A stretch of 64,000 nucleotides of DNA, from positions 6,506 through 70,505 of the forward strand of contig JBBRXO010000002.1 in NCBI GenBank assembly GCA_038248345.1. The letters are read 5' to 3'. The notes beneath the pieces were generated by a model, which was given only the letters and a program-made list of their open reading frames with translations, was not told the origin of the DNA and did not search any database. A program made the translations under genes and the position numbers. Position 1 is the stretch's first letter, and each line of letters opens with the position of its first letter. The DNA comes from Armatimonadota bacterium (GTDB taxonomy: Bacteria > Armatimonadota > Hebobacteria > CAIYQO01). Shown here in pieces: positions 6,264 through 41,464 of this stretch.

Positions 6264-6366
6264 CGTGAACTACCCCTCTTTATTACGGATACTGCCCCGG
6301 TAACATGATATCATACCGGGGCAACTACCGTGTGTCTTTATTTGTACCGATATCAACTCAATTTAG

Positions 6367-7203: not shown

Positions 7204-7215
7204 AATAATCCCTCC

Positions 7216-10200
7216 TTAGTGGGCCGGCGGTGCCAATGCCGCCGGAATAGAGATAATTTGTCCTGTCGCGTTGGCCTTAGCCTGCGCATATTTGATGATA
7301 TTCGGTTGTACCACAATCAACAGCTCCTTACGTTGTGGAGATTTCTTTGTCGAGCTGAATAACCAGTTACCGATTAGCGGAATCTGGCCTAGCACCGGGA
7401 TGCTGGTACGGACAACACTATTAGTGGTCTGGATCATGCCGCCGATTACCAGCATCTCTCCGTCGCGAACCTTGACGGTGGTAGAACAGTTACTGGTGGT
7501 AATCACCGGCAGGTCAACCCCGTTATCTCTGCGGAAGGTCGGGTTATCTGTCACTGATGTGGTGATGTCCAAAGTGATGATACCATCGTTGGTAGTTTGC
7601 GGACGAACCTTCATTACTACACCAGTATCAATTGTTTGGGTGGTAAATACCGGCCCGTTATTCGTCTGATTGGTAACGGTCTGGTAGTAAATCTTACCGC
7701 CAGCCTGGAAGACCGTCTCTTTGCCTGACTGTACGGTAGTAGAAGGTCTACTTTCAATTCTCGCTTTATTCGTGGATGTTAGCGCCGCCAGACTAGTGCT
7801 GAAGGCGAGGGGGTCGCGGATTATACGCCCAAGCACTAACGGATTGCCACTCTGCGTTTCTCCGGTACCGATCGTGACCCCACCAGGCGTAACAACGCCG
7901 CCATTCACACCACCCCAGGTGATGCCCAGGTTCTTCACTTGACCTTCGTCAACACTGATAATCGTTGCCGTGATTTGAATCTGCGAAGGCTCAGTATCTG
8001 TCTCAAGTATCTTGGCTTCCGCTAATTTAACGATATCATCCGGACCCGATAGTTGCAAAATAACGTTATCGCTTGCGCCGGCAGTGGCACCGCCAAGTGA
8101 TGCAACTCCAGTACCTGAGTTCGTTGGAGTAGGCGTAGTGCCCATCGTATCAGGGCCAACCGATACCATCAGACCATCTTTGCCATACAGGTCGAGCAAC
8201 ATCGTTTTGGTACTATCAACTTTAACGAAGCGCAGGATCACTTGTCTGATCACTTTTCTCGGCCCATTGTCCAGACTGTTGAGCGTAGCCAAGGCCATCT
8301 CTACTGTCTCTTTGGGCCCCTGTAACTCAAACTTGCCAATCGGCTCTACAATGCTCAATGTCCCATCTGCCTTACGTACCACTGGCATCCCGAGTGAGCT
8401 GTTGCCCGCGGCTAGGCTGAAGATACTCGGCGGCAAGGTGATGATCGTCAACCCCTTAGCCTCATACTGCCCCAGCAGGTAGTTAATCGCCGTCGAGGCC
8501 GGGATGGAATCAACCTTGGTGACTACCTTGGCCATTGGGATATCGACATCCATAGTATTCAGTGATGCCAGCGCACTGTCGATGACATTCTTTGGGCCAT
8601 TCAAAATGATATCGTTGCTGGTCCAATTAGTACTCGTACCGCCAGGCATAGCTGCCCAGTTCGGATTAGGGAGGTAGGATACCTTCAAGCCAGCATCCTT
8701 ATAGCTGTTCTCCAGGTACTGCTTCACCTGTGCCGGAATAAGTGACTTGATATGGTATCTGCTCTCCACAATCGTTGCGGCTGTCGTATTGCCCGCGCCG
8801 GTAGTGGGGAGATCAATGGAGGCAATCAGACCTTTTGCTTCTGCAATGCTGCGCGCCGGACCGACAAGCATCAAGTGTGCATTGACTTCGGTTGCAATAA
8901 TATCCTTATAGGCAATTTTCAACGCCTCAATGGCTGCAGCAGGCGAAATATTTGTCAGTGTCAACACTGCATTGGTACTGGCATCTACATTTACACCCGG
9001 TGCGATATCAATTTTCGCCAGCAAAGTCTTAAGGGATTCGAGATTGTCTTTTGCTCCGACGATGTATATTCGATTGGTTCCCATCCCCATCACCTTCAGG
9101 TCTTTGTAGGTATTGGTGATGGCGGTAGTAGCCTCGGCAATAGTCAACTGCTGCAGTGTGTAGGTAAGATTACCTTCTACTTCAGGATTCCTGTCAATTA
9201 AGTCGAGGAAGTTTTTTGCGCTCTTTAAATTTAACACCGTGCCGATGAGCACGATTTGATTACCAGTCTCACCCACGGGAGCGCTTTTCACATCTTTATA
9301 GGGGAGCTCCAGCGCTTTGGCTACTTCTGCAGGACGCATATACTTCAATGTTACTAACATGTTGGTGATCGGTTCAGGTCCCTGTACCTTTTCAGTGTCA
9401 ATGAAATTAAGGAACTTCACCGCTTCCGCCAGACGTGGCGCGGTGCCCGCCAATACCAGCCGATCTACCGGCAGAAAAACGGTTTTAATGTCCTTATATA
9501 CGGTGCCTAATGCCGCGATGGCGTCCTCCTTGGATAACGCCTGCAGTCGATAGGTCACTGTTTCATCAGGTTGCGGCAAATTAACTGCCGCCGAGGAGGC
9601 GTCAATTAACTCCAGCAAGGATTTCGCCGCTTGAAGGCGCTCGGTAGAACCTAGCAGGAGTACCGTACCATTTGAGAAACCTTTCGCACGAACATCCCGC
9701 GCCGAGAGGCTTATCGCGGTTTCAGCATCAGCCGTCGTCATATTATGGAGCGTTACTACCTGTTGTGTCTCCAGCTGAGGATTTGTCCCGTTTGTACTTG
9801 GACTGTTTAGAACATTCAGGAAGGAGACGGCGGCCTTCAGCCGTGATGGCGCCCCCATGAGCACAATCCGACTATCCTTCATGGACTTTACCGTGACATC
9901 TTTGAAAACCACACCCAGTGCTGCTTCTGCATCCGCAGCAGTAACGTTATCCAGTTTCACTACCTGATATATCTCGGAAGCGCTTGTCCCGGAAATTGAG
10001 GCTGCGGTAAAATCCAACTGATCGATGAAAGATTTAGCGGCCTTGATTCGTGAAATTGAACCCACCAGCAGTACCCGGCCATCGACCGTCTTAACCTGCA
10101 CGTCCTTATACATTACCCCCAGCGCAGCCTCGACATCAGCCGGACTGATCTTTTGTAATGTCAAAATTGCGATCTGTTGATTTTGCACACCGTATTGGTC

Positions 10201-10539
10201 ATCGAGCGCCTTGGCGGTATTCACCACGTAGGTGCCATTGACACTTCGGTATGAATACTCGGTCATGCCGGTGATGACAGACAACGCTTCATCTACTGTC
10301 ATGTCGCTCAGGCGTAAGCTGATTGGGCCTTTGACCGTCGGTGAGATTACGATGTTTGTCCCCGTCGCGGTAGCCAGAGCCTGCAGTACTACCGGCAATT
10401 CAGCATTGACGAAATTCAATGACTGAATCTTCGTTTCTGCGTACGCCGAGCTTACTGCTACTGTCAATGCCAGAATAATTGCGACCTTAGCCGCCCGGCT
10501 CAATCGATAGAGATTTGCGATTATTCGTGCTCCTATCAT
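7216..10539 (-). CDS. pilQ: Type IV pilus secretin (PilQ/GspD family) with an N0-like domain followed by about 9-10 tandem 60-70-aa secretin-N-type repeats and a C-terminal secretin domain
   Basis: Signal peptide; recurring motif (A/I)ALG.VYKDV.V.....R(V/I)(L/V)L.G....L..AK.(F/L)(L/I)..(L/I)D about seven times; C-terminal ...SIPVLGQIPLIGNWLFSSTKKSPQRKELLIVVQPNII secretin signature; ATGA overlap with upstream pilP. Confidence 0.8.
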   Translation of the reverse strand: MIGARIIANLYRLSRAAKVAIILALTVAVSSAYAETKIQSLNFVNAELPVVLQALATATGTNIVISPTVKGPISLRLSDMTVDEALSVITGMTEYSYRSVNGTYVVNTAKALDDQYGVQNQQIAILTLQKISPADVEAALGVMYKDVQVKTVDGRVLLVGSISRIKAAKSFIDQLDFTAASISGTSASEIYQVVKLDNVTAADAEAALGVVFKDVTVKSMKDSRIVLMGAPSRLKAAVSFLNVLNSPSTNGTNPQLETQQVVTLHNMTTADAETAISLSARDVRAKGFSNGTVLLLGSTERLQAAKSLLELIDASSAAVNLPQPDETVTYRLQALSKEDAIAALGTVYKDIKTVFLPVDRLVLAGTAPRLAEAVKFLNFIDTEKVQGPEPITNMLVTLKYMRPAEVAKALELPYKDVKSAPVGETGNQIVLIGTVLNLKSAKNFLDLIDRNPEVEGNLTYTLQQLTIAEATTAITNTYKDLKVMGMGTNRIYIVGAKDNLESLKTLLAKIDIAPGVNVDASTNAVLTLTNISPAAAIEALKIAYKDIIATEVNAHLMLVGPARSIAEAKGLIASIDLPTTGAGNTTAATIVESRYHIKSLIPAQVKQYLENSYKDAGLKVSYLPNPNWAAMPGGTSTNWTSNDIILNGPKNVIDSALASLNTMDVDIPMAKVVTKVDSIPASTAINYLLGQYEAKGLTIITLPPSIFSLAAGNSSLGMPVVRKADGTLSIVEPIGKFELQGPKETVEMALATLNSLDNGPRKVIRQVILRFVKVDSTKTMLLDLYGKDGLMVSVGPDTMGTTPTPTNSGTGVASLGGATAGASDNVILQLSGPDDIVKLAEAKILETDTEPSQIQITATIISVDEGQVKNLGITWGGVNGGVVTPGGVTIGTGETQSGNPLVLGRIIRDPLAFSTSLAALTSTNKARIESRPSTTVQSGKETVFQAGGKIYYQTVTNQTNNGPVFTTQTIDTGVVMKVRPQTTNDGIITLDITTSVTDNPTFRRDNGVDLPVITTSNCSTTVKVRDGEMLVIGGMIQTTNSVVRTSIPVLGQIPLIGNWLFSSTKKSPQRKELLIVVQPNIIKYAQAKANATGQIISIPAALAPPAH

Positions 10540-11279
10540 TTGCTACCTCCTGCTATGATTTGCTTGTTACGTTTCCCATCCGTTACAGACATACTACTAT
10601 CTGTTATTCTAGTCACGCTCCACCCGGAACCGGGGATCGCCTGACCCTTAACCACTTGATAATACTGACCATTAAACATGCCGAATGCCATCGGGCGCGC
10701 CTCTGTCATAATGATTCCGCGGAGTCCAAAATCGGGCACCGGCGGCTCAACATCAGCTGCGAGTAACAGGTTGTACGCTTCTAACACTTCCATCGAAGGC
10801 CCTTCTAACGTGAGCATACCGTTTTTAATGGTAACAGTTACACCTGATTTTTCTACAACTGCTTTGGCTGTCTCGCCGTCAATCCACAACAGCTTGTGCG
10901 GTTCACTCTTCATTTTAATATCATCAGACGAATAGTCCGTCCTACCATCGGGCAATTTCCCTATTCCTGTTTTTGAGGTACCAGTTGTACCTTCCGAAAC
11001 CGGTGGTTCAACTGTCACAACATCGTCTTTTTTCTTCTCACCGACAAATGGATCACGAACTATCTCACCGACGAGATTATCTACACTCCTGTTGCGCGCC
11101 CAGTCTAAAGGGGCGGACGCTGGTAGAGCATCAACAGTTGTCGTAGATGTTGTAGCCGGCTTGGTTGCGTTAGAAGGTGCCGGGGTTGTCGGTTTGATGG
11201 TGAAATAAACTGCAACCAGCAATCCTACCAGCATTACTCCTAATACAATATATTGAATTGTCTGTTTATTCATGCTCAT
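10536..11279 (-). CDS. PilP-like pilus assembly protein (assigned mainly by position between pilO and pilQ; N-terminal TM anchor, low-complexity linker, C-terminal beta-rich domain)
   Basis: Gene order pilM-N-O-[this]-Q with ATGA overlaps on both sides. Confidence 0.45.
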   Translation of the reverse strand: MSMNKQTIQYIVLGVMLVGLLVAVYFTIKPTTPAPSNATKPATTSTTTVDALPASAPLDWARNRSVDNLVGEIVRDPFVGEKKKDDVVTVEPPVSEGTTGTSKTGIGKLPDGRTDYSSDDIKMKSEPHKLLWIDGETAKAVVEKSGVTVTIKNGMLTLEGPSMEVLEAYNLLLAADVEPPVPDFGLRGIIMTEARPMAFGMFNGQYYQVVKGQAIPGSGWSVTRITDSSMSVTDGKRNKQIIAGGSK

Positions 11280-11986
11280 TTCGCCTCCCCTCCCTTCAAC
11301 TTGGCCGCCTTAACTACATCAGATTCTTTCTGATTCTGCGAGGGAATAATAATCGCATACGTTTCGATCGATGTAGTTATCTGCATCTTGCCATCTTTAA
11401 TCCCGGAAGGAGTCACCGCAATCGACTTGACGTAAACTAGCTTCTGGAAATTTCGGAGACCATCAAGAAACTTCATCAAACTGGTGTAAGTTCCGTTAAT
11501 TGTAAGGCTTATCTTCATCACCTGCGTAGCATTAGCCGGAGCCTTCGGGGCTGCGGCGGGTGTCGCCGCGGCTGCATCCGTAGGTGCGGGTGGCGGCGGA
11601 GGTGCCTGGCTAGCGAATGGCCCCTTTGTAGGATCAAACGGTTTGATATCACCTGGGTTGATTACAATCAGGTCGTTCCCCGTATTAAAAGCGACTTTCT
11701 GAATCTGCTCCAAGTAGGTCGGGAGGTACTTAACGTCTGTTAGATCCTTGTCAAGCTCACCCTGTAATAATATGTTCCGCTCCAATTCCGCTTTCAATTC
11801 ACCTTTTTTGTCTAACTTCTCTTTTAACTCCTTGATCTGCTTCCTGGTGTCCGCATTGGCGGTCACCTTCTTGGTTACCTCAATCATCTGCATTTGATAA
11901 CCGACTACTCCAAGGGCCATAATAACCAGGCCTATGGCGATTATGATGACAAGTGCGATAGTGAAACGAGAATTACTCTTTTGCAT
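11276..11986 (-). CDS. pilO: PilO-like type IV pilus assembly protein (TM anchor, coiled coil, periplasmic domain, Pro/Ala-rich linker)
   Basis: Architecture and position in the pilMNOPQ operon. Confidence 0.55.
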   Translation of the reverse strand: MQKSNSRFTIALVIIIAIGLVIMALGVVGYQMQMIEVTKKVTANADTRKQIKELKEKLDKKGELKAELERNILLQGELDKDLTDVKYLPTYLEQIQKVAFNTGNDLIVINPGDIKPFDPTKGPFASQAPPPPPAPTDAAAATPAAAPKAPANATQVMKISLTINGTYTSLMKFLDGLRNFQKLVYVKSIAVTPSGIKDGKMQITTSIETYAIIIPSQNQKESDVVKAAKLKGGEAK

Positions 11987-12570
11987 TATAAGTCTCCTCC
12001 TTTCATATCTGCAATTGGAACCGTTACTTCAAAATGTACAGATTTTACTGTGTTGCCCGGGCCAGGCTCAATACTAATGGTACCGACTTTGGTCTTTTCG
12101 TTAGCGGCCCAGTCTGTCTTCGACAAGCTGACCATGTACTCTCCCAACGTTTTCTCATCTGGGGCAGAGCCAGCCATCTTGATATCGACACCTTTATCAG
12201 TGCTGTTAACAGTGAAACTTGTAATCGTTACACCTGGAAAAGCAAGGCTGATCTTACTGACATCCGCCAGAATGATCATCCACACTGCTTCGCTTACTCG
12301 CACTTGATTAATCAGCATAATGTGCGGTTTTATCTTATCAATTTCGCTCTGGATTGCATCGTATTCCTTCTTGGATTCCATCCTTGAATCAAGATCAGCT
12401 TTTTGGTATACCTGGTCTCTGCTCTATGTCGCCAAGGATATCCCCGCAGCCACATTGAGACCTATCATCGCAACGAGCACCACTACTACGAACATAGATG
12501 ACCATCTGATGATGTTCATCTCGCGCAATCGTTTGGCGCGGCGCTCGGCGATCAAGTTAATATTGATCAT
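11986..12570 (-). CDS. pilN: PilN-like pilus assembly protein whose reading frame contains one in-frame TAG stop (codon 49, at 12426..12424) between the TM anchor (MININLIAERRAKRLREMNIIRWSSMFVVVVLVAMIGL...) and the periplasmic domain (track ORF 11986..12381)
   Basis: My own translation of the minus strand from the ATG at 12570..12568 (ATGA overlap with the pilM stop); same frame as the 11986..12381 ORF; classic PilN N-terminus. Confidence 0.55.
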
Positions 12571-13715
12571 CGGCGTGGCTCCTTTTCAAATGCGAGCATC
12601 GGCTCCCGCAATGCGAGTCCCAAAGCCGTAGAAAGTAGCGGTAGCTGGGATTCCAGACCCTCAGCGCCTTCTGGCAAGAGTAGTGCGCCAGAATGGATTA
12701 CATTCAATACCTGCACCGGCACTCCGAGTTGTCCGGCAAGGTATTCGCACAGGCCATTCATTTTTGCAGTGCCGCCTGTAAGAATAACTCGCGAGACACC
12801 TTGGATGGCTGCTGAATCTGGCGTCCGCTGGTAATCATAGAAAGCGAAGGATCGGCGAATCTCGCGAACAAGCTCTTCCAACTCTGGCTCCAGCGCCCGG
12901 CTGGCTTCCTGCCCCAGTGGTGTTAGCATCGCCCGGTCGACTTCATCTGTTACCACCTTAACTTCGTTTTCCTTAACTTCTTCCGCTTGCGATGAACTAA
13001 TGCCCATTGCAGAAGCGATTGCCTCCGTTAGTGCATTGCCCGCAGATGCTACTGATCGTGTCAGTTTGAAGACTCCATCCGAGACGATAGTGATGGAAGT
13101 ATAGGTCGCGCCAATATCAACTAATGCCACGGTCTCCTGTACTTGCGACCCCTGCATTAATTCCACTGCGCTTCTCATCAAGGCAAACGGTTCCAGTTCG
13201 ATGGCAAGTGGTTCTAATCCAGCCTGTTCCAGCGCCTGGACACGACGATCCACCAGATCTCGCGGGGTGGCTGCCAACATGACGTCCATTTGCGGTGTAC
13301 CATCAGCTGCGCTGGTGCCCAGAATCTGCAACTCCACCAGGCTATCTTCTACCGGGAAGGTTATGTAATTACGCGCTTCCCAGTAAATTGATTTGCGTAA
13401 CTGGTTCTCTGGCATAGATGGTAGCAATACCTGACGTATTACCACCGAAGGCCCAGCCACCGCGGCAATTGCCAACGGAGTCTGAATCCCTAAAGTCTGC
13501 AACAGTGTATGAATTGCTTCAGCTACTGCCAACTGATTATCAACGACACCCAGCTTGATAGCGTCGGGCGGCGTTGGCGTGCTTCCGGCATGTGTCAGCA
13601 GGTAACCATTGCGTGTATATACGACTTCCACTACCTTAATTGAGTGGCTGCCGATATCAATTCCCACGGTCTCACTGGTGCCGGAGAATCTGCTCAACAG
13701 ATTCATATCTGGCAA
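12567..13715 (-). CDS. pilM: Type IV pilus assembly ATPase-fold protein PilM (actin/FtsA-like)
   Basis: MPDMNLLSRFSGTSETVGIDIGSHSIKVVEV... and overall PilM-like length and order. Confidence 0.8.
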   Translation of the reverse strand: MPDMNLLSRFSGTSETVGIDIGSHSIKVVEVVYTRNGYLLTHAGSTPTPPDAIKLGVVDNQLAVAEAIHTLLQTLGIQTPLAIAAVAGPSVVIRQVLLPSMPENQLRKSIYWEARNYITFPVEDSLVELQILGTSAADGTPQMDVMLAATPRDLVDRRVQALEQAGLEPLAIELEPFALMRSAVELMQGSQVQETVALVDIGATYTSITIVSDGVFKLTRSVASAGNALTEAIASAMGISSSQAEEVKENEVKVVTDEVDRAMLTPLGQEASRALEPELEELVREIRRSFAFYDYQRTPDSAAIQGVSRVILTGGTAKMNGLCEYLAGQLGVPVQVLNVIHSGALLLPEGAEGLESQLPLLSTALGLALREPMLAFEKEPRR

Positions 13716-13785
13716 CTCCTCTCCCGATGCGAATACTATGCATCAATCCTGACTCTAGAATATCAACTACTGACATACTACCAGG

Positions 13786-16506
13786 TTATTTCTTACTAAT
13801 CAACGCGTATGTACCACTCGTGGTATTGTAGGTAGCTTCCATATTCAGTGTCTTCGCCAGGAAGCTTAACGGAACCATTGTACGGTTTCCAACAATATGT
13901 GCCGGTCGTTTCAGGTCTATAATATCGCTATTCACCTTGGCTTGTGCTGATTCAATCTGGACATCAACAAATGACCCATTTGCCCAGGCATTCACTGCCT
14001 GATTCTTCTCTAACCAGACTACTACGCCACCCTTGGCTTCAATCAGCATACGCATCGGCACCATCGCTACGTCATTCACTACATACGGTGATGGGTAATA
14101 CGCGCCGCTGGCAATTACCGGCTTGTTATCTAAGTATATTCTTCCATTCGCCAACGGAACGATAATCTCCTTTTCCGGGACAAATTGAATTCCTGGGTTA
14201 AGCTGTTGTAACTCTACCGGGGAACTATGATATGCTTCTGCGATGGAATTGATCGAATCACCTTGTCTGATAATATAGCTGGACTGTGCGCTGATATTTG
14301 ACCCTATCGGGGTTACATCGATATTTGTTGCAACTGGCACACTAGCAATAATCGTTGTAAAGTAACTCGCTGCCTCGGTATCGTTGGCTTGATATGAGCG
14401 CGGTAGCTCACTGTAGCTGCTGATGCCAGGATAGTCAATGCTCATGTTAGCCGCACTGACTGATGGCAATGATGCTAATGACAACCAGGCAGGTCGGCTG
14501 AACGATGTGCCAGCTTTGGCATAGCCAGCAACTTCATTATGTCCCGGCTGGCCAGGGGTGATCTCATGGGTGCGGGTGGTAGAAGTGTAAGCGGCGTAAT
14601 TGTTGACTTCACCATTCCCTGTCTGGCGGCGGGGCGCGGCAAACATCCCTTGCACCGGGGCAATGATTGTTCTTTCCGCTACTCCTGGAGTATTGGGGGA
14701 TGCCGGTACACCGAAACTGGTTTCGCTCTTAATATTCCCAGCACCTACCGTTGAATATGCTTGCGGCGTCTTCGGCACATTCGGATTAATAGTCCGGGCA
14801 TTTGCAACATCAGAAATCACCGCATTGTGTGCAGGCATTTTACTTCCCGGCGTTACCGCCAGGATAGTCATCGTCGAATTGTATTGAGGGGTTCCTACAT
14901 TGGTTGATGCAGTGGCTACAGCTGGCGACATTGGAACAGCGTAGTTACTGCCTGAATAATTATTCCCGACTTTTATCGAGGCCATCAGTATCGGTAAGAC
15001 TTTTTCGTCTGGTGATATCGGCCTACTATTAACCGCGCCCGCCACTATTGCAACATTTCCGGGTAATCCGGCTACCGGCTGCTCGGTGAGATTCACCATC
15101 AAAGCATTATTTTGTGGGCTGCCCGAGGTGAGCAATTGGTGCGCTGGTGTGTCATTCAGGTTGATGTTCGGCATAGTTGTGGCCATTACCATTCCGAGTG
15201 GATTAGTCGAACCAATAGTTGTTCCACCGTTCGCAATGGCGGCATTCAGTACCGGTGTTGTAGCCAATGCCGGACTTACTTTGTTAACGATCTCCTTCGG
15301 CAATGTAGTATAGGTCGGAAATTCGCGGCCTAACATTGGATTCATGGCATCGACCGGAGCGCCGACCGTCAGCTGTGCTGGCGAATATGCATTGTAACCG
15401 ACCGCCGGGACAATGATCGGATTGCGCATCGGTGTATATGACGTATAGGTATTCAATGGAGCCAGAGAATTTCCCTTATATGCCAATGCCATCGGGGTAG
15501 TTAACCCATATGCGCGCAATGGTGATGAGCTGGCAAATACGTTGTTCAGTGACTTATTACTTACAGGTACCAGCGCGATGAGATCCTGCAAAATGCCGGG
15601 GGTATACATCTTCGGGCGTGCTGACAGGCCATAAGCCAGCATGGGGACGCCGTAATCTGCGCGGGAGGCGAAGGGCATGTCATTTACGCTACCGAGCATT
15701 GTCGGATGGGATAACCCCAGATAATCATTTAGATTGATCGATTTCGTCGAAGGGTACAGGTTGTTTAAGAACGTCTCAACTCTCTGTGATGGATCGTGCC
15801 CTACTCTTACTGCGACCACCGGGCTGACTGCACGGTTATCAGATATATCGAGAGCTGAGGCGGATAGAACATATTCGCCGGGAGTTAGTTTCGCTTTAAT
15901 TGGATCCCAGGAGATCGTGTATGGGTATTCACTGGTGATACCGTAGGGGACATTGTTGACATACACCGTGATATATTTGATGCCGGCATCACCTGATGCT
16001 TCTACTTTAATATTTACCGGGCCGACGATCTCTGCCCCATTTGTCGGGCTGATGATCCGCACAGTAGGAGGAGTGACCTTCTTGGGAGCGATGGTATTCT
16101 GCAGATAGAAACTCACCTGACGCTCCGCATAACGACCGCGGGTATCGGACAGGCGAATGTTAAATACGTGCGTACCAGGCTCCAACATCGGAGTATAGAC
16201 ACTTAGATCACCGTCGATGCGGAAGGAATAAGACTGCCCCGGCTGGGCTTTGGCTAGATTAACATCACCCTTTATGAAGCGACGCCCATCGATGGTAGTC
16301 TCGTAATGATTAATTTGTGCGTCAATGGGATTGACGAACTGCACGGCCACCGGAAAGGCCGAAGTGGAGATGGGATTATTGGGCAACGGCAGTAATAACT
16401 GCATTTGCATGCCACCATCTTGTGCCTGCACCGGAACGACCACGGCTAATAACGTGAGCGCGAGGGCAACTACAAACAACCCGAACTGAGATCGACTTCC
16501 CATCAT
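13786..16506 (-). CDS. Large secreted envelope protein: signal peptide, N-terminal Ig-like domains, about 400-aa S/T/A/P/N-rich low-complexity linker, LysM-like motif (YIIRQGDSINSIAEAY...), C-terminal copper-amine-oxidase-N-terminal-like (stalk) domain
   Basis: Domain motifs read from the translation; only about 70 bp upstream of pilM on the same strand; candidate sigma70 promoter (TTGACT-N17-TAATTT on the minus strand) about 100 nt upstream of its AGGAGG RBS. Confidence 0.5.
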   Translation of the reverse strand: MMGSRSQFGLFVVALALTLLAVVVPVQAQDGGMQMQLLLPLPNNPISTSAFPVAVQFVNPIDAQINHYETTIDGRRFIKGDVNLAKAQPGQSYSFRIDGDLSVYTPMLEPGTHVFNIRLSDTRGRYAERQVSFYLQNTIAPKKVTPPTVRIISPTNGAEIVGPVNIKVEASGDAGIKYITVYVNNVPYGITSEYPYTISWDPIKAKLTPGEYVLSASALDISDNRAVSPVVAVRVGHDPSQRVETFLNNLYPSTKSINLNDYLGLSHPTMLGSVNDMPFASRADYGVPMLAYGLSARPKMYTPGILQDLIALVPVSNKSLNNVFASSSPLRAYGLTTPMALAYKGNSLAPLNTYTSYTPMRNPIIVPAVGYNAYSPAQLTVGAPVDAMNPMLGREFPTYTTLPKEIVNKVSPALATTPVLNAAIANGGTTIGSTNPLGMVMATTMPNINLNDTPAHQLLTSGSPQNNALMVNLTEQPVAGLPGNVAIVAGAVNSRPISPDEKVLPILMASIKVGNNYSGSNYAVPMSPAVATASTNVGTPQYNSTMTILAVTPGSKMPAHNAVISDVANARTINPNVPKTPQAYSTVGAGNIKSETSFGVPASPNTPGVAERTIIAPVQGMFAAPRRQTGNGEVNNYAAYTSTTRTHEITPGQPGHNEVAGYAKAGTSFSRPAWLSLASLPSVSAANMSIDYPGISSYSELPRSYQANDTEAASYFTTIIASVPVATNIDVTPIGSNISAQSSYIIRQGDSINSIAEAYHSSPVELQQLNPGIQFVPEKEIIVPLANGRIYLDNKPVIASGAYYPSPYVVNDVAMVPMRMLIEAKGGVVVWLEKNQAVNAWANGSFVDVQIESAQAKVNSDIIDLKRPAHIVGNRTMVPLSFLAKTLNMEATYNTTSGTYALISKK

Positions 16507-16676
16507 AATTCCTCCTGGCGGCGCGGCTTACACCTGCGATCTATGACGTCTATTTTCCGACTCATAGCGGTTTGCCGATCCACTGGTTGTACACTATTGT
16601 TTAAATTATCATAAGAACGGGTCTAAGTCAATATCTTTTTCAATGTTTGAGAAAATAGACAAGTCTTCATTTTTTG

Positions 16677-16785
16677 TTGGGGCACATGGCATGTGCCCTC
16701 TATACGGGATATGGGATTATATGACCAATTGTAAGGTATGATTACGACATGGGCACAAGCCTTTTGCCCCTATAATCGGGTTGTT
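16677..16785 (+). repeat. Double-hairpin intergenic repeat, copy A (GGGGCACATGG/CATGTGCCC ... GGGCACAAGCC/TTTTGCCCC)
   Basis: About 90% identical to 43467..43575 and reverse-complement-similar to 19865..19958. Confidence 0.7.
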
Positions 16786-16856
16786 GTTTGCTTGCCGCTC
16801 AATTTTTCGGCTTACAATTATGTACAGATTCTCTGCGTGCCGATATTTCAACCCCA

Positions 16857-17960
16857 CTACCCCAGCACCTTCTCCAACGCGGCAACGAATTTTTTATTTT
16901 CCGCTTCCGTCCCGAAGGTCACCCTGATCATTGTCGGGTAGCCGAAGATGTCGCCAGTGCGTACGATCACTCCCTGTTTCAGCAACTGCTGGAACACCTC
17001 ACGGCACGGTTTGCCGGTATCTACCAGCACAAAGTTGGCCTCACTGGGGACGTAGGTAAGACCCAGCCGATCAAACGCGCCATAGAGCAGCACCTTGCCC
17101 GCTTCGTTGGCGGCGATACTACGCGGGATCTGCTCGGGATCGTTGAGGCTGGCGATGGCCGCCCACTGCGCCAGATTCGCCACGTTGAATGGCTCGCGCA
17201 CCTGGTTCAACGCCGTCATCACCTCCGGGCGGCTACTCACTCCATAGCCGACGCGCAAACCTGCGAGGGCGTAGATCTTCGAAAAGGTGTGCAACACGAT
17301 GACGTTTTTGCCCGCCTTCACATACTCCATCGCCGAACCAAAGGCCGGGTTGGTCGCATACTGATAATATGCCTCGTCCAGCACCACCAGCACGTGCTCC
17401 GGCACGCGTGCAATGAAGGAATCCACTTCCGCCTTAGTATTCACCGCTCCAGTGGGGTTGTGCGGGTTGGCGATATACAACAGTTTTGTGTTGGGGGTGA
17501 TCGCTGCCAGCATCCCCTCCAGATCATGAGCGAAATCAGCGCGCAGCTCCACCTTCACCGGGACAGCGCCCATCAATAAGGTGCTGATCTCGTACATACT
17601 GAAAGGCGGGTCGCCCATCACCACTTCGTCGCCCGGCTCCAGATAGGCAGTGGCGAGGAAATGCATTACCTCGTCGCTGCCGCGTCCGGCGATTATCTGC
17701 CCGGCTTCCACGCCGAGAGTAGCCGCCAGTGCTGTGCGTAATTCAAAGCTATCGTTATCGGGATAGAGGCGGACATCACGCAGGTGCTCCTGCATCGCCG
17801 CAACTGCCAGCGGTGACGGCCCCAGCGGGTTCTCGTTCGACGCCAGTTTGATGATCGACTTCGGATCCAGTCCCAACTCACGTGCCACTTCCTCAATCGG
17901 CTTCCCCGGCGAATACGGCGTAATCGCGTCAATAGCTGCTCTGTATGATGTCTTACTCAT
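16857..17960 (-). CDS. hisC: Histidinol-phosphate aminotransferase
   Basis: KLASNENPLGPSPLAV..., class II aminotransferase motifs, about 367 aa. Confidence 0.8.
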   Translation of the reverse strand: MSKTSYRAAIDAITPYSPGKPIEEVARELGLDPKSIIKLASNENPLGPSPLAVAAMQEHLRDVRLYPDNDSFELRTALAATLGVEAGQIIAGRGSDEVMHFLATAYLEPGDEVVMGDPPFSMYEISTLLMGAVPVKVELRADFAHDLEGMLAAITPNTKLLYIANPHNPTGAVNTKAEVDSFIARVPEHVLVVLDEAYYQYATNPAFGSAMEYVKAGKNVIVLHTFSKIYALAGLRVGYGVSSRPEVMTALNQVREPFNVANLAQWAAIASLNDPEQIPRSIAANEAGKVLLYGAFDRLGLTYVPSEANFVLVDTGKPCREVFQQLLKQGVIVRTGDIFGYPTMIRVTFGTEAENKKFVAALEKVLG

Positions 17961-18066
17961 TGGTTCTCCTATCGCATAACTCTTTGCACTATTTTATCTC
18001 TTTCTCCTTTTAGAAGCAAACCATAAGGTCTGGTCAATCATTCAATAAAATGCTCTCTGTGCTTCT

Positions 18067-18160
18067 AATTCACAGGATTTCAGGATACGACAAAGATATC
18101 AAGGATAAAATATATATCTTATCCTTCCAATACACACTATCCTGTATATCCTGTGAATTA
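18067..18160. promoter_or_regulatory. Nested palindromes upstream of amt (aattcacaggat ... atcctgtgaatt, inner aaggataa/ttatcctt); candidate operator
   Basis: 12-bp perfect inverted repeats about 70 bp apart, read directly from the sequence. Confidence 0.3.
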
Positions 18161-18314
18161 AAACTATACAATCAACTGCTACGTAACAAACATTTAACAA
18201 TTCGACACATCCCGGCAATCTGCGTACACAGCCGCGCAACATTGAGTGGATATCATATAAACGTAACCTTCACACTTGCGTGGAGATATTGTATCCAGAA
18301 AGGGAGGAGTAACG

Positions 18315-19841
18315 ATGAAAAAGATGAGAGAACACCTTGAAGGTATCTCGATGTGGCGACTGGCAATTCTGGTCGCTATGCTGCTGACGCTGGGCGCGGT
18401 AGCGATGGCACAGGGGGCAGGCGCTGATGTGCTGCCTATGGATGCGCAAGCCATTACCGATGCTGTAAAAGATGCGAAGTCCGCTGGTGTTTCAGCGGGA
18501 GATACCGCGTGGATGCTCATGGCCACCGCGCTGGTACTCCTCATGACTCCGGGGCTGGCGCTCTTCTACGCAGGTATGGTACGCCGCAAGAATGCACTCG
18601 GAACTATCATGCAAAGCTTTATGGCCATGGCAGTCATCAGCATTCAATGGGTATTGATCGGCTACACGCTGGCCTTTGGCCCCACCATTAACGGGTGGAT
18701 CGGCGGCATGTCGTGGGCAGGTTTGAACGGCGTCACCGGCGTGCCCAATGCCGATTATGCGGCGACCATTCCGCACTTGGTCTTTATGGCGTTCCAAATG
18801 ATGTTCGCCATCATCACCCCGGCGCTCATCTTCGGCGCAGTGGCAGAACGTATGAAGTTCAAGGCTTTCATAATCTTCCTGCTGCTCTGGGCGACCATTA
18901 TCTATGATCCGCTGGCACACTGGGTATGGGGCTTCAACGGCTTGTTGCGCCCTGGGCAATTATTCGCCCAACTTGGCTTCGGCAGTGGCGCCATGGCTTT
19001 GGACTTCGCTGGTGGTCTAGTAGTGCACATCTCGGCTGGTATCACCGCACTGGTGGCAGCGCTGGTACTCGGCAAGCGCCGCGGCTATCCGCATGAACCA
19101 ATGCCACCGCACAACCTGCCCATGACCGTTCTCGGCGCTGCTCTCTTATGGTTCGGTTGGTTCGGCTTCAATGCCGGCTCTGCTCTGGGAGCCAATGGAT
19201 TGGCGGGCTACGCCTTCGTCAACACCAATACCGCCACTGCCGCTGCAGTACTGGCCTGGGTATTTATCGAATGGATGCACCATGGCAAGCCGACTGTCCT
19301 CGGTGCGGCCTCCGGCGCGGTGGCTGGCCTGGTCGCCATTACCCCTGCTGCTGGCTTTATTCAACCGTGGGCGGCCATCCTTATCGGCCTGGCGGCTGGT
19401 GGTATCTGTTACGGAGCCGTCAATCTGCGCTTCAAGCTCGGATACGATGACAGCCTCGACGCTTTTGGCGTACACGGCATCGGTGGTATGCTCGGCGCTA
19501 TTCTCACCGGTGTCTTCGCCACCACCGCAGTCAACCCGGCGGGCGCCAACGGACTGCTCTACGGCAACCCGGCGCAATTGGGAATCCAATTGTTATCGGT
19601 TTTGATCTCGGTAGTATTCTGCGGCGTGGGCGCATTCCTGCTGCTCAAGCTTACCAGTCTGGTCACCGGCGGCCTGCGCCTCTCCAAGGCCGAGGAAGCC
19701 GAAGGTATGGATATCAGCGAACACGGCGAGAATGGCTACAACCTGGGCGACATCCCACTGGGACACGGCGGCAGCCCCGCCCCGGTAGGCCATCACCCCG
19801 CCCCCATTCCCTCGCTGGCAGCAGCGAAGGCCATGGAGTAA
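18315..19841 (+). CDS. amt: Ammonium transporter (Amt family)
   Basis: Amt-family motifs (DFAGGLVVHISAG..., GAVAERMKF); start chosen at MKKMREH with a GGGAGGAG RBS. Confidence 0.85.
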   Translation: MKKMREHLEGISMWRLAILVAMLLTLGAVAMAQGAGADVLPMDAQAITDAVKDAKSAGVSAGDTAWMLMATALVLLMTPGLALFYAGMVRRKNALGTIMQSFMAMAVISIQWVLIGYTLAFGPTINGWIGGMSWAGLNGVTGVPNADYAATIPHLVFMAFQMMFAIITPALIFGAVAERMKFKAFIIFLLLWATIIYDPLAHWVWGFNGLLRPGQLFAQLGFGSGAMALDFAGGLVVHISAGITALVAALVLGKRRGYPHEPMPPHNLPMTVLGAALLWFGWFGFNAGSALGANGLAGYAFVNTNTATAAAVLAWVFIEWMHHGKPTVLGAASGAVAGLVAITPAAGFIQPWAAILIGLAAGGICYGAVNLRFKLGYDDSLDAFGVHGIGGMLGAILTGVFATTAVNPAGANGLLYGNPAQLGIQLLSVLISVVFCGVGAFLLLKLTSLVTGGLRLSKAEEAEGMDISEHGENGYNLGDIPLGHGGSPAPVGHHPAPIPSLAAAKAME

Positions 19842-19864
19842 CCGGGGGAACCAAAAGGACGTAT

Positions 19865-20319
<455 letters not shown>

Positions 20320-20544: not shown

Positions 20545-22293
20545 GTGGATTTAATATTGACGGGGAATCAGGCTATTGCGCGTGCTGCACGCGATGCGGG
20601 GGTGGCGTTGGGGGTCGGGTATCCGGGCACGCCCTCTACTGAGGTTTTGGAGACGCTGGTGACACTGGAGGGTGGACACGCGCAGTGGGCACCCAATGAG
20701 AAGGTGGCGCTGGAGGTGGGCATCGGGGTATCCTTCGGCGGGGCGCGCGCGCTGGTGACGATGAAGCATGTGGGCGTGAATGTCGCCGCGGACCCGCTTT
20801 TCACCGCTGCCTACACGGGCGTTGCCGGTGGACTGGTGGTGATGGCCGCCGATGACCCCGGCATGCACTCCTCGCAGAATGAGCAGGACAGCCGCCACTT
20901 CGCCCGCGCGGCCAAGCTGCCGATGCTGGAGCCGTCGGACTCGCAGGAGGCCTACGATTTCACCCGCCTGGCTTTCCAGCTCTCCGAAGAGTACGACACC
21001 CCGATAATGCTGCGCACCACCACACGCCTCTCGCACGGCAAAAGCACCGTCCACGAGGCACCCGCGGAGACTGACCTGCCGGCACCGGTAGCGCCGCAGA
21101 ACCCGCAGAAATACGTGATGGTCCCCGGCTTTGCCCGCGCCCGCCACCTGGTGGTGGAAGACCGGCAGGTGCGTATCCAGGAATGGGCGGAGAGCGCGGA
21201 TATCACCAAAACCGAATACCGCGATAAAAAGATCGGCATCATCACCAGCGGCGTCACCTACCAGTACGTGCGCGATGTCGCCCCGGAGGCGAGTACGCTG
21301 AAGCTGGGCATGGTGAACCCGCTGCCGATGGCGGCAATTATCGCTTTTGCCAAAGAGATTGAAACCTTATATGTAGTAGAGGAGCTGGACCCGATTATTG
21401 AAGAACAGGTACGCGCTGCCGGTATCACTGTCATCGGCAAGGCGAACTTCCCCATCTTCGGCGAGCTGCTCCCCGGCATTATTGCCAAAGGCTTGGGGCT
21501 AGAAGTGAAACCCTCTGCTACTGCCACCTCTGGTCTGCCCACGCGCCCGCCCAGCCTCTGCCCCGGCTGCCCGCATCGTGGCGTTTTCCTGCTGTTAAAG
21601 AAAAACGGGCTGACGGTGAGTGGTGACATCGGTTGCTATACGCTGGGCGTCTTCGCCCCTCTCAATGCCATGGACACCTGCGTCTGCATGGGCGCATCGG
21701 TCGGCGTGGCGCATGGGCTGGAGCGCGCGGGGCTGGATCCCGCGAAAATCGTTGGCGTCATCGGCGATAGCACTTTCCTGCATAGCGGCATCACCGGCGT
21801 GCTGGATATGGTGTACAACGGCTCCCACGGCACTATCATGATCCTGGACAATAGCATCACCGCCATGACGGGGCGGCAGCAGCATCCAGGCACCGGCAAG
21901 ACCCTCGACGGCATGCCCGCCCCCTCTGTTGACCTGGAAGGCCTACTGAAATCCCTCGGTGTACAGGATGTGACAGTGCTCGACCCCTACGATTTAGCCA
22001 ACACCGAGGCAGAGCTTAAGCGCGCGCTGGCCTATCCCGGTGTCTCGGTAATCATCGCCCGTCGTCCGTGTATGCTCATCCCGCATGAGATTCGGCCCAA
22101 GCTCACGGTAGACGCCGACCTCTGCAAGCGCTGCGGCAAGTGCCTACGCCTGGGGTGCCCGGCCACCGGCAAAATAGCCGAGGAGTACAACGGCAAAACC
22201 CGCTACCTGCCGGTAATTGACGCGCAACTCTGCAACGGTTGCGGCGTCTGTGCGCAACTGTGCGCCTTTGGGGCGTTGAAGGTAAAGGAATAA
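20545..22293 (+). CDS. iorA: Indolepyruvate:ferredoxin oxidoreductase alpha subunit (TPP-binding; C-terminal 2x[4Fe-4S] motifs)
   Basis: MDLILTGNQAIARAARDAGV... and CKRCGKC/CNGCGVC ferredoxin motifs; GTG start; TTGACG-N17-CATAAT promoter candidate at about 20497..20527. Confidence 0.8.
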   Translation: MDLILTGNQAIARAARDAGVALGVGYPGTPSTEVLETLVTLEGGHAQWAPNEKVALEVGIGVSFGGARALVTMKHVGVNVAADPLFTAAYTGVAGGLVVMAADDPGMHSSQNEQDSRHFARAAKLPMLEPSDSQEAYDFTRLAFQLSEEYDTPIMLRTTTRLSHGKSTVHEAPAETDLPAPVAPQNPQKYVMVPGFARARHLVVEDRQVRIQEWAESADITKTEYRDKKIGIITSGVTYQYVRDVAPEASTLKLGMVNPLPMAAIIAFAKEIETLYVVEELDPIIEEQVRAAGITVIGKANFPIFGELLPGIIAKGLGLEVKPSATATSGLPTRPPSLCPGCPHRGVFLLLKKNGLTVSGDIGCYTLGVFAPLNAMDTCVCMGASVGVAHGLERAGLDPAKIVGVIGDSTFLHSGITGVLDMVYNGSHGTIMILDNSITAMTGRQQHPGTGKTLDGMPAPSVDLEGLLKSLGVQDVTVLDPYDLANTEAELKRALAYPGVSVIIARRPCMLIPHEIRPKLTVDADLCKRCGKCLRLGCPATGKIAEEYNGKTRYLPVIDAQLCNGCGVCAQLCAFGALKVKE

Positions 22294-22296
22294 ATC

Positions 22297-22887
22297 ATGC
22301 CATTAACAACGAACATCTTGATAGTAGGCGTAGGCGGGCAGGGGATTGTGCTGGCCGGGGATGTCATCGGGCTGGCGGCGCGGCTGAGTGGGTTGGAGGC
22401 GAAAGCTTCCGAGATTCACGGTATGTCGCAACGCGGCGGGTCGGTGGTCTCCGAGGTGCGCTATGGGATACATGTCTCCTCGCCGCTGATTCCCCCGCCC
22501 GGCGCCAACTTTGTGCTGGCTTTCGAGATGCTGGAGGCGCTGCGCGGGCTGGAGCGGATGCGCCCCGGCGGGCTGGTTATCGCCAACCGGCAGCGCATCA
22601 CCCCGGCGTCGGTCACCTACGGCAGCGCCGTCTACCCGGAGGACGCCGAGGAGCAACTGCTGGCCGCCTGCCCCAAAGCGGTGATCATCGACGCACTGGC
22701 GGAGGCGCAAGCCGCGGGCAACGCGCGCGCCGTAAATAGCGTACTGCTGGGGATGCTGGCGCACCACACGGCACTACCGCGCCAGAACTGGGAAACAGCG
22801 CTGGCGCAGACCGTGAAGCCACAGTATGTAGAGGTAAACCTCGCCGCTTTCGCGCGCGGGTATGAGCGGGCGGAGCGTAATGTATAG
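22297..22887 (+). CDS. iorB: Indolepyruvate oxidoreductase beta subunit
   Basis: MPLTTNILIVGVGGQGIVLAG... about 196 aa, directly after iorA. Confidence 0.75.
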   Translation: MPLTTNILIVGVGGQGIVLAGDVIGLAARLSGLEAKASEIHGMSQRGGSVVSEVRYGIHVSSPLIPPPGANFVLAFEMLEALRGLERMRPGGLVIANRQRITPASVTYGSAVYPEDAEEQLLAACPKAVIIDALAEAQAAGNARAVNSVLLGMLAHHTALPRQNWETALAQTVKPQYVEVNLAAFARGYERAERNV

Positions 22888-23022
22888 TGCATAACAGACC
22901 CAACTACCGCTATGCGGTAGTTGGGTTCACTGCACATAGCGATGATTTTTTGCCATTTCCTCCACAAACTTTTAAATACCGTGATATAATATTGCATTAG
23001 TATCCTACCCGGGAGGTCTATC

Positions 23023-23799
23023 ATGCGATACAAGATATCCATGCCACGCGGCTTCGGCGTTGTAGAGGCGATTATTGTCGTTGCTGCGTTGGTGATAGTA
23101 GCCGTTATCCTGTTCCCGGTATTAACGCCAAGCAATCAAAAAAATACCACGGCACTTCACTGCACGAATAACCAACGCCAGATCGCCCTTGCATGGTCGG
23201 AGTATGTCCAACGACATGATGAAACCTTCCCTGATGCCAGTATTGCCTGGACCCTATTTAAAAAAGAAAATGCACCAGTTTATAGATGCCCAGATCATAG
23301 TGCTGCAGTGAATGGATACGTGTTCAATGCGAGACTCAGCTAAAGAAAGCTGAGCGATCTTAGCTATCCCCTCTCAACCACTTGTTTCTTAACTGCTGAC
23401 GGAAAAAGCAGTGAAATTTCTGGGACATACGCCAATGTAGCCTATGATCAAACGAATATTGATATGAAGCGGCACAAACCTTATTTTTGTAGTAGCTTCT
23501 TAGATGGTCATGTAGAATATTTGAAGGGGAAGGATATCACCACCTGGCTCTCAGCAAAGAGCCAGCAATACACGTCGCAGACTTGCCCAGCCGGGGTGGC
23601 ACAGCCGGTTACCACCACCTTCGCATCGGCAACCTGGGCTGTGACCAGTGGCGTGGTGGATGACGTGAGCGGGCTGCCGAAGGCGGATATGCTGGGTGGG
23701 GACGTGACCTTTAGCAAGGCGGGTAGCTATACCATTACCGCCACCGGGTCGGCGGTGGTTGCGCCACCTACTACGGTTTATGAGTTCAGGGTGAAGTAA
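23023..23799 (+). pseudogene. DUF1559 / H-X9-DG family protein with a prepilin-type N-terminal helix (RGFGVVEAIIVV...), interrupted by a single in-frame TAA at 23341..23343 (track ORFs 23023..23343 and 23464..23799 are in the same frame)
   Basis: My own in-frame translation across the gap: ...VFNARLS*RKLSDLSYPLSTTCFLTADGKSS...YFCSSFLDGHVEYL matches the DUF1559 C-terminal H-X9-DG-like FxDGHV motif; perfect TATAAT -10 plus GGGAGG RBS upstream. Confidence 0.5.
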
Positions 23800-23844
23800 G
23801 AAGTCCCCGTAGCATGGGCGTCCCACCCATGAGAACGGGGATTA

Positions 23845-23990
23845 ACACCACGCGCTAAAGCACGTGGCTATAAGATCATGCATCCTGAAGGGCGCTGGAC
23901 ATTCGATTCCGAAAAGTCCGCGAAGGCGAACGAACGGCGCGTAGCGCCCTGCAGCCGGGATTTCAATCCCAGCGGAAAGAGGTTTTGCAT
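23845..23990 (-). repeat. Modular hairpin repeat family 2, copy a (reverse orientation)
   Basis: Reverse complement aligns to 31940..32070 (gggattgaaatcccgg, gtccgccttcgcggac modules). Confidence 0.6.
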
Positions 23991-24203
23991 TTACCTCAAA
24001 TGTGGTATGGCAGGAATATCGTTTTTAGCGATAATCCGTCCTCCCTGGCCTGACCATGAACGACCAGGCGAACAGGAGGGACGCTAAAAAATCTATACTT
24101 GGGGGAGGTATGGACAGTATCTCATATTGCTGATATTCTATCCTTATTATGTGGACGAGATATCTCTATATAATGTTATTGTTATATTTCTCTATGGGGT
24201 GAA

Positions 24204-24325
24204 AATCTGATGTCGCAGAAACCCTTAGCCCAGCCGTTCACGAATATGCGCCAGGCTATCGTATTGAACACTCGAAAACCAGCCTTGAAACTTGGGACTT
24301 AAAACTGTCTTGCAGGAGAAAAGCC
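24204..24325 (+). promoter_or_regulatory. Conserved upstream leader element (aatctgatgtcgcRgaaWccctt ... ttgaacact.aaaacc ... CTTGRAA heptamer array) immediately 5' of paaK
   Basis: Aligns with 31362..31515 and the minus strand of 33877..34010. Confidence 0.5.
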
Positions 24326-25645
24326 ATGTCAAACACCGGCCATAGTTCAACCATTTACAACCCTCTATATGAATGCATGGAACGCGAGGAGATGCGGGCG
24401 CTGCAACTGCGCCGCATGAAGGACGTGGTCTCGCGCGTCTACAATCATATCCCGGCCTACCGCCAGAAATGCGAGGAGCTGGGCGTCACTCCGATGCACA
24501 TGCAGACGCTGGCCGATATCGCTCACTTTCCCTTCACCATCAAGACAGACTTCCGCGATAATTACCCCTACGGCATGTTCAGTGTGCCCATTGAGGAAGT
24601 AATCCGCATTCACATGTCCAGTGGCACCACCGGCAAACCCACAGTGGTAGGCTATACCAGGAACGACATCGACCTGTGGTCACAGGTGATCGCGCGTTCC
24701 CTCGGATGCGCAGGCGTCACCCGCAAAGACATCGTGCAAGTATGCTACGGCTACGGGCTTTTTACCGGTGGCCTGGGCATACATTACGGGGCGGAGTTGT
24801 ACGGCGCCACCGTTATCCCGGTTTCGGGTGGTAACACTGCCCGCCAGGTGATGTTGATGGAGGATTTCGCCTCCACCGTCATCGCCTCCACTCCCAGCTA
24901 TGCGCTGTATCTGGCCGAGGTCGCCGCCGAAGCGGGGGTACTCGACAAGCTGAAACTACGCATCGGCATCTTCGGCGCCGAGCCGTGGTCAGAGGGGATG
25001 CGCCGGGAGCTGGAGAGCAAACTGAAGCTGAAGGCGCTGGATATTTACGGCATGTGCGAGCTGATAGGCCCGGGAGTGAGCAATGAATGCGAACACCAGC
25101 AGGGACTGCACATCTTCGAGGATCACTTCTACCCGGAGATCATCAACCCGGATACCGGTGAAGTACTCCCCGAAGGGAGCATCGGTGAGCTGGTGGTGAC
25201 CACCATGACCAAAGAGGCGGTGCCCATCATCCGCTACCGCACGCGCGATATCACCTCGCTCAACTACGAGAAATGCTCCTGTGGCCGCACCATGGTGCGT
25301 ATGGATCGCGTCACCGGGCGCAGCGATGATATGCTCATCATTCGCGGCGTCAACGTCTTCCCGTCGCAGATTGAGGATGTCTTAACAACCATCGAAGGAA
25401 CCGCACCGCACTACCAGCTACATGTGCGTCGCGAAGGCAACCTGGATGAGATGGAGCTATGGGTAGAGGTAACCGAGGCGGTGCTCAACGACGAAATCCG
25501 CTCGCTGGAAACCCTCAGCCGTCGTATCGGCAACGCGCTACAAAGCGTCCTCAACGTCTCCTGCCGCATAAAACTGGTAGAGCCAAAGTCAATCCAGCGC
25601 AGCGAAGGCAAAGCGAAACACGTTATTGACCATCGCGTGCTGTAA
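24326..25645 (+). CDS. paaK: Phenylacetate-CoA ligase family (aryl-acetate CoA ligase)
   Basis: N-terminal [22 protein letters not shown] and [16 protein letters not shown]-binding motif typical of PaaK. Confidence 0.75.
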
Positions 25646-31905: not shown

Positions 31906-31939
31906 AGGGGTAGATCATAAGAGAGAGGTGTTTGCAATA

Positions 31940-32130
31940 CTCTTTCCCGCTGGGATTGAAATCCCGGCTGCAGGGCGCTGCGCGCCGGTCGTCCGCCTTC
32001 GCGGACTTTTCTGAATCGAATGATAGCGCGCTTTAGCGTACTTGCCGTTGTTAGCCACCTCTTTCAGGGGGTGGCGCCGGGAATCGCAATCCCGCTCTAA
32101 TGGGCGGGACGCCACTGCTACGGGTAGCGG
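31940..32130 (+). repeat. Modular hairpin repeat family 2, copy b (longest copy: gggattgaaatcccgg, gtccgccttcgcggac, atgatagcgcgctttagcgtacttgccgttgttagccacctctttcagggggtggc modules)
   Basis: Modules recur at 23845, 41465, 44868 and 49700/49818. Confidence 0.65.
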
Positions 32131-41355: not shown

Positions 41356-41464
41356 AGTAGATTCTCCTTTGACAGTATTATACCCATAATAATTGCAAAT
41401 GTGCAATCGTATTTGTGTGATAATGCAAGCAATAGTAAAGAGTTACGCTGGGACTAAAGTACCG

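Follow-up and report, generated by a model that had tools for sequence, protein, structure and literature searches.

We analysed a 64,000-nt window of an Armatimonadota bacterium contig (the window is the whole stretch, to which all coordinates refer; features lie on the + strand unless stated otherwise) in which a gene at 23023-23799, for a divergent prepilin-type H-X9-DG/DUF1559-like protein, is interrupted by a single in-frame ochre codon, TAA, at 23341-23343. We consider it likely that a recent, genuine lysine-to-stop mutation inactivated this one cassette-borne copy, which would make it a young nonsense pseudogene. Three observations carry this reading: intact orthologues have a sense codon where the window has the stop, the stop is reproduced in contig L001 from the Logan assembly of a sister strain (run SRR19962012), and the truncation removes conserved parts of the protein. 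In the proposed course of events, AAA at 23341 would have changed to TAA and translation would now end after residue 106, while the promoter and ribosome-binding site (RBS) are still intact and the downstream codons have not yet decayed.

One gene with a single nonsense codon

Translation of 23023-23799 gives 259 codons with one internal stop, the TAA at 23341-23343, and a terminal TAA at 23797-23799; by simple arithmetic, about 12 stops would be expected in a random frame of equal size. The two open reading frames (ORFs) on either side, 23023..23343 (106 amino acids, aa) and 23464..23799 (111 aa), share one frame, and the original prediction took them to be one gene. This was borne out when the read-through product was searched against 5.8 billion proteins. 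Two proteins matched it over its full length, P0001 (258 aa, 78% identity, E 1e-127) and P0002 (258 aa, 49% identity), and P0047, likewise 258 aa long, is a third copy and the tandem neighbour of P0002; weaker matches span just the first 60-65% of the product. The read-through product aligns throughout with all three 258-aa relatives, and its halves do not match two separate proteins. Two separate genes can thus be ruled out, the homologues all being single 258-aa proteins, as can a frameshift at the interruption, since both halves share a frame. Nor would a useful product be expected from re-initiation at ATG 23464, the first in-frame start after the stop, which has no Shine-Dalgarno sequence and whose product would be missing both the signal and the greater part of the fold.

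In a codon alignment, the codon facing the window TAA is AAA in L002 (the contig encoding P0001), AAA in L003a and AAT in L003b, the latter two being the intact tandem copies of contig L003. AAA can become a stop only through a first-base A-to-T change, so that a single transversion explains the lesion, and the stop most likely arose by one such change from a lysine codon, as judged from this alignment. The closest genome, the Armatimonadota metagenome-assembled genome (MAG) GCA_038215455.1, holds the 78% orthologue along with at least nine paralogues. The features of the interrupted gene and its surroundings are as follows.

22953..23839, +: self-contained cassette (about 890 bp) of promoter, 5' untranslated region (5'UTR), gene and about 40 bp of 3' flank; the sole stretch that aligns with L002, at 83% over 899 columns.
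22961..22990, +: putative sigma-70-like promoter, TCCACA-18-TATAAT with an extended -10 TG (consensus scan, 10/12 matches plus TG).
23011..23016, +: Shine-Dalgarno sequence GGGAGG, 6 nt ahead of the ATG; GGAGG is kept in L002 and L003a/b.
23023..23343, +: translated remnant of 106 codons plus the premature stop, with leader MRYKISMPRG, motif G/FGVVE (the slash marks the end of the leader), hydrophobic helix, Cys47, Cys89 and the first beta-strand (ORF, translation and alignment; identical 106-aa product in SRR19962012).
23341..23343, +: premature ochre TAA, ancestral codon most likely AAA (Lys) from the codon alignment; same TAA in L001.
23335..23354, no strand: inverted repeat with perfect 7-bp arms, CTCAGCT (23335-23341) and AGCTGAG (23348-23354), around an AAAGAA loop; the 5' arm ends, on its loop side, in the T of the TAA (sequence and DNA fold).
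23344..23799, +: post-stop remainder, codons 108-258 and the original TAA, with three of the four predicted beta-strands, the H-X9-DG motif and a C-terminal domain of about 85 aa (translation; strands from an AlphaFold model of P0001).
23473..23511, +: H-x9-DG-H motif (H151...D161 G162 H163), missing from the shortened product (conservation in 12 and 60 sequences).

The TATAAT box and strong RBS reported earlier for this gene were both recovered. The 106-aa and 111-aa fragments are recorded as separate proteins in a public protein collection (NCBI source, 86,680-bp contig); the two ORFs should be merged in the annotation and flagged as one prepilin-type H-X9-DG pseudogene.

A divergent prepilin-like protein

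Read through, the intact gene would encode 258 aa: a class III signal (G/FGVVE) and helix, a small pilin-like alpha/beta domain ending in RH-x9-DGH, and a C-terminal domain of about 85 residues. The N-terminus, MRYKISMPRG/FGVVEAIIVVAALVIVAVILFP, begins with a basic leader whose last residue is Gly, continues with Phe at +1 and Glu at +5, runs on as a hydrophobic helix, and thus has the features of a class III signal (leader Gly, Phe or Met at +1, Glu at +5, about 20 hydrophobic residues). Further along, RHKPYFCSSFLDGH is an exact H-x9-DG motif (R150-H151-KPYFCSSFL-D161-G162-H163). Residues E15, C47, C89, R150, D161, G162 and H163 are invariant among 12 sequences, with F11 and H151 nearly so; the equivalent columns, together with D126, are invariant among 60 sequences, and G10 is invariant in four close homologues.

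Curated models recover this protein poorly. PF07596 (DUF1559, SBP_bac_10) aligns at profile positions 11-38 with 16.2-16.6 bits (E ~0.01), below its gathering threshold of 23.3, as do P0001 (17.4 bits) and P0047 (19.5 bits). PF07963 (N_methyl) reaches 10.5 bits (E 0.49) against a cut-off of 21.2, the window protein is not reported by TIGR02532 (cut-off 16.3 bits), and TIGR04294 (H-X9-DG, cut-off 19 bits) has no match to it, with 11.9 bits (E 0.15) for P0001. The paralogue P0202, by comparison, passes PF07963 and TIGR02532 with 33.4 and 37.5 bits. In the sub-family of the window protein, GFG(V/I)(V/A)E replaces GFTLIE, and the curated models miss the sub-family as a result.

Homology is nevertheless clear against these scores. 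P0004, P0005, P0007 and P0008, which carry PF07963 and PF07596, match at E 1e-15 to 1e-20 (P0004, 1.5e-20) with 34-37% identity over residues 1-165; relatives with both domains are 33-42% identical, with P0202 at 42%. A profile built from P0001 and P0002 found 58,523 proteins at E <= 1e-3, most of whose best matches span profile positions 6-170 or more. In an annotated database, the profile search returned thousands of proteins named as prepilin-type N-terminal cleavage/methylation or H-X9-DG proteins, many of them from Armatimonadota, and nearly all of the best 120 carry PF07963 and PF07596. The claim of a DUF1559-type prepilin-like protein is therefore upheld by homology, signal and H-X9-DG motif, although not by the curated cut-offs, and we regard the gene as a divergent prepilin-type H-X9-DG/DUF1559-like member, with a pilin-like role that is suggested by these sequence features.

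Among known systems, the closest are the prepilin H-X9-DG/DUF1559 proteins (PF07963 with PF07596 or TIGR04294) of Planctomycetota, Verrucomicrobiota and Armatimonadota, to which homology extends over residues 6-170, alongside type IV pilins and type II secretion pseudopilins (GspG/EpsG, PilA, ComP, PilX). With the H-X9-DG/DUF1559 proteins the window protein has in common the G/F...E5 signal, a CxxNxRQI block that follows the helix, and RH-x9-DGH, which is invariant. Unlike them, the sub-family formed by the window protein, P0001, P0002 and P0047 fails the curated cut-offs and has its own C-terminal domain of about 85 aa, and the window copy is cut short by a nonsense codon. Such families can be large: Rhodopirellula baltica has 74 DUF1559 genes (PMC2754498), and one related MAG holds at least 10 paralogues of the present family. 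Pseudogenes are expected in large, fast-evolving families of surface proteins, and a specialist would not be surprised by this one. Within the 64-kb window, tblastn and a motif scan found only the 23023-23799 copy; a pilM-N-O-(P)-Q cluster with an ATPase gene lies at 4548-13715.

What the truncation removes

An AlphaFold2 model of the orthologue P0001, built from the 60-sequence alignment, has a predicted local distance difference test score mostly of 83-97 at residues 1-175 and below 50 at residues 176-258. It comprises a long N-terminal helix (13-38 and 45-63) and strands at 98-101, 121-126, 154-158 and 163-166. With the stop at codon 107, only the signal, helix and a single strand remain; lost are three predicted strands, the H-X9-DG motif, the C-terminal domain and the invariant residues D126, R150, D161, G162 and H163. 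The C-terminal domain has faint PKD-like similarity only, and a Foldseek comparison against the PDB gave no meaningful match. Going by this model, the 106-aa product is most likely non-functional.

The stop is shared with a sister strain

Two contigs from the SRR19962012 assembly represent the sister strain. L001 (1642 bp) matches window 21777-23418 except at 5 of 1642 positions, one of which alters IorB, and carries the same TAA at 23341-23343. L033 (14,010 bp) matches window 6299-20308 without gaps and except at 9 of 14010 positions, and the divergence between the two strains is about 0.09%. Two scans of JGI (Joint Genome Institute) metagenome contigs, one with protein patterns and one with a DNA pattern across the stop (N at variable bases), gave no match, and neither did exact-product look-ups, which covered IorB, PaaK, the 111-aa ORF, the two halves of the FGE gene and the truncated PilN (as the window ORF and as P0013); the sister-strain evidence ends at 23418.

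Age of the stop and selection on the gene

Relative to L002, the ratio of nonsynonymous to synonymous substitution rates (dN/dS) is 0.45 in codons 1-106 and 0.21 in codons 108-258, and the intact tandem pair L003a/L003b has 0.38 and 0.23 in the same two segments. The 151 post-stop codons contain no second stop or frameshift. The absence of a further lesion, together with a downstream dN/dS like that of L003a/L003b, indicates that the stop is much younger than the divergence from L002. Nearly all of that divergence would then have built up while the whole gene was under purifying selection, with the stop a comparatively recent addition. The stop is, at the same time, older than the split of the two 0.09%-diverged strains. 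Ongoing gene decay, which had been raised as one explanation, fits all of the data when it takes the form of a recent nonsense mutation.

Synonymous divergence from L002 is mosaic: the proportion of synonymous differences (pS) is 0.09 in codons 67-137 (window 23221-23433), which bear the stop, and 0.45-0.46 on either side. This suggests past recombination or gene conversion, or an unexplained constraint at the nucleotide level.

A hairpin completed by the new base

The T of the premature TAA completes the perfect 7-bp inverted repeat listed above. Folding as DNA gives this hairpin as the centroid structure (-6.3 kcal/mol); it is not formed by the corresponding L002 sequence, GTCAGCA...AGCTGAG. 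Within 39 nt surrounding the stop, only two bases separate the window from L002, 23335 and 23341, both of which complete the 5' arm of the stem. When every single-base change was made to the reconstructed intact gene, a perfect stem of at least 7 bp was completed by 4 of the 91 possible nonsense substitutions (4.4%) and by 1.4% of all substitutions. Quasi-palindrome template-switch mutagenesis is an established mechanism (PMC7202029), and since the new T completes the 7-bp hairpin, we propose that the A-to-T change may have arisen by template switching at a quasi-palindrome; the case for this origin is suggestive. As in the Escherichia coli thyA and lacZ quasi-palindrome reporters, a substitution perfects an imperfect inverted repeat by introducing a base that pairs with the opposite arm; unlike in those reporters, the event is deduced here from a single natural allele, with an ambiguous ancestral state at 23335.

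A second perfect hairpin lies further downstream in the gene, at 23544-23551 and 23558-23565 (CTGGCTCT and AGAGCCAG, loop CAGCAA). Two window-specific substitutions, as compared with L002, gave rise to it: C to T at 23551, which turns Pro into Ser, and a synonymous A to G at 23559. Perfect stems of at least 7 bp are absent from the L002 cassette.

A promoter-bearing cassette

The gene is part of the cassette at 22953..23839, whose counterparts lie at L002 3683-4570 and L003 706-2404. The flanking genes vary: in the window these are iorB and paaK, in L002 and L003 they are murJ and dnaG, with the two tandem copies of L003 coming after murJ. About 70 bp upstream of the gene are 91.5% identical between the window and L002 and are more conserved than its synonymous sites, and all four copies share AAAWAC(C/T)GTGATAWAAT...GCAT...GGAGG (window 22933-23022; L002 3664-3753; L003 706-795 and 1573-1627). 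Judged by sequence conservation, the promoter and 5'UTR would be specific to the family and under constraint. L002 and L003 share 91% identity in MurJ and about 50% in the adjoining cassette proteins, a contrast suggestive of a hypervariable, exchangeable surface-protein locus. This H-X9-DG sub-family moves between loci as a cassette that brings its own promoter.

Alternative explanations

Several points weigh against a young, inactive pseudogene with the history set out above. The stop is supported at the assembly level, the window MAG and the Logan contig may come from the same read set, and L001 ends 75 bp past the stop, so that the downstream half is confirmed in the window alone. With L003a/b as outgroups, 19 assignable amino-acid changes fall on the window lineage and 8 on that of L002, and upstream of the stop the counts are 13 and 5; this excess, mostly upstream of the stop, could reflect relaxed constraint or diversifying selection before the stop arose. 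The signal-plus-helix fragment of 106 aa could retain some activity. An intact promoter, RBS and downstream codons would also be expected if full-length protein were still made at some level. Finally, the argument from the hairpin was made post hoc, and its significance is modest (p ~0.04).

A first alternative is selected loss or neofunctionalisation, in which truncation was favoured (e.g. in a surface protein targeted by phages or grazers) or the 106-aa fragment has a role, and the allele is maintained. Such selection would be in keeping with an allele common to two distinguishable strains, with a fast-evolving cassette swapped between loci, as is typical of surface proteins under diversifying selection, and with the 19 vs 8 excess of amino-acid changes in the window lineage. 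However, sharing between strains 0.09% apart needs no selection, the truncation has not recurred independently, and no relative has a naturally short form of about 106 aa, the close homologues all being 258 aa long. We regard this explanation as unlikely.

Errors of sequencing, assembly or consensus could also place a stop in a gene that is in fact intact, with AAA or another sense codon at the site, and assembly quality had been put forward as a possible cause. The window does derive from a MAG and, as first noted, contains three disrupted genes in 64 kb, since both a pilN TAG and an FGE frameshift are present. In pilN (12570..11986, - strand), the in-frame TAG at 12424-12426 faces Glu in 5 of the 6 closest intact orthologues, and the truncated PilN is recorded as an independent 131-aa protein in the public collection. 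The sister strain has an intact 194-aa PilN (L033 7739-8323), with C for the window A at 12426 giving GAG, and pilN is also intact and syntenic in L034 (81% PilN identity). The pilN stop would be a consensus error or else a strain-specific mutation of very recent date, and some lesions in the window could thus be consensus errors or minority alleles. The TAA at 23341 differs in this respect: it is shared with the sister strain and the pilN TAG is not, which gives the two nonsense codons different histories. A different assembler recovered the identical TAA on a contig set apart by 5 single-nucleotide polymorphisms, from a distinguishable strain at about 0.09% divergence, which renders an assembly or consensus error very unlikely here; in addition, substitution errors are rare at the consensus level, and the site lies outside any homopolymer. 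In the third disrupted gene, an FGE-sulfatase gene (PF03781) at 61929-62662 (+ strand), the sequence is split over two frames whose halves match Pfam profile positions 5-133 and 129-254, with an apparent 1-base frameshift near 62290, around ...AACAACAACCCAAGGGCGGTAAT....

It has also been proposed that the stop is suppressed or phase-variable. Were a suppressor tRNA, programmed read-through or codon reassignment to carry translation past it, the full 258-aa protein would still be made, in agreement with 151 undamaged downstream codons (dN/dS 0.21), an undamaged promoter and RBS, a second in-frame stop in pilN and the position of the stop within a hairpin. We nevertheless hold a bypass to be highly improbable. 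TAA serves as an ordinary terminator: among 53 long non-overlapping ORFs of the window, 15 end in it, iorA and the interrupted gene among them. Orthologues have sense codons at the site, so the stop is not a conserved feature; on both counts, codon reassignment and programmed read-through find no footing. The pilN TAG has the look of an ordinary mutation, since the sister strain has GAG there. ARAGORN found no tRNA gene in the window, and Rfam gave no credible match in 22500-24600. TAA is the wrong codon for both selenocysteine and pyrrolysine. In the RNA, the stop reads ...CUCAGC-UAA-AGAAAG... (...GCGAGACUCAGC-UAA-AGAAAGCUGAGC...), and the 7-bp hairpin is the sole local feature. UAA is the least leaky stop, and the known read-through stimulators are found 3' of a stop, not on both sides of it.

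As for phase variation, the lesion is a base substitution in ...CTCAGCTAAAGAAAG..., a site with no repeat tract: neither a homopolymer nor a short tandem repeat is present, which speaks against a phase-variable contingency locus. We likewise give scant credence to the idea that the hairpin CTCAGC[T]AAAGAAAGCTGAG is a templated hotspot that repeatedly switches the cassette off, or that a UAA held in its stem undergoes regulated, low-level read-through, although if either were true, pilin-like genes of Armatimonadota would have, in a hairpin-borne stop, a contingency switch of a new kind.

Neighbouring genes and a dispersed repeat

The domain content of the neighbours agrees with the earlier placement of the gene between iorAB and paaK: an IorA-like protein with POR_N, TPP_enzyme_C and Fer4, an IorB-like protein with POR, and a PaaK-like protein with AMP-binding and AMP-binding_C_2. 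The G+C content is about 50% in the gene, 43-51% in its first 500 nt and 60-70% in the upstream iorAB. L034 is syntenic with the window and ends inside iorB, short of the iorB-paaK junction.

A dispersed intergenic repeat starts right after the cassette gene. Its copies are about 50-200 bp long, 73-94% identical and contain internal inverted repeats; within the window they lie at 23806-23997, 31925-32124 (inverted), 49706-49756, 49829-49877 and 41443-41506, and elsewhere at L009 4691-5313, L011 5892-6019, L005 3486-3536, L015 2947-3010, L006 9637-9686 and L002 7983-8119. The repeat, which has no Rfam match, is also present in the related Armatimonadota MAG and resembles a repetitive extragenic palindromic (REP)- or miniature inverted-repeat transposable element (MITE)-like element.

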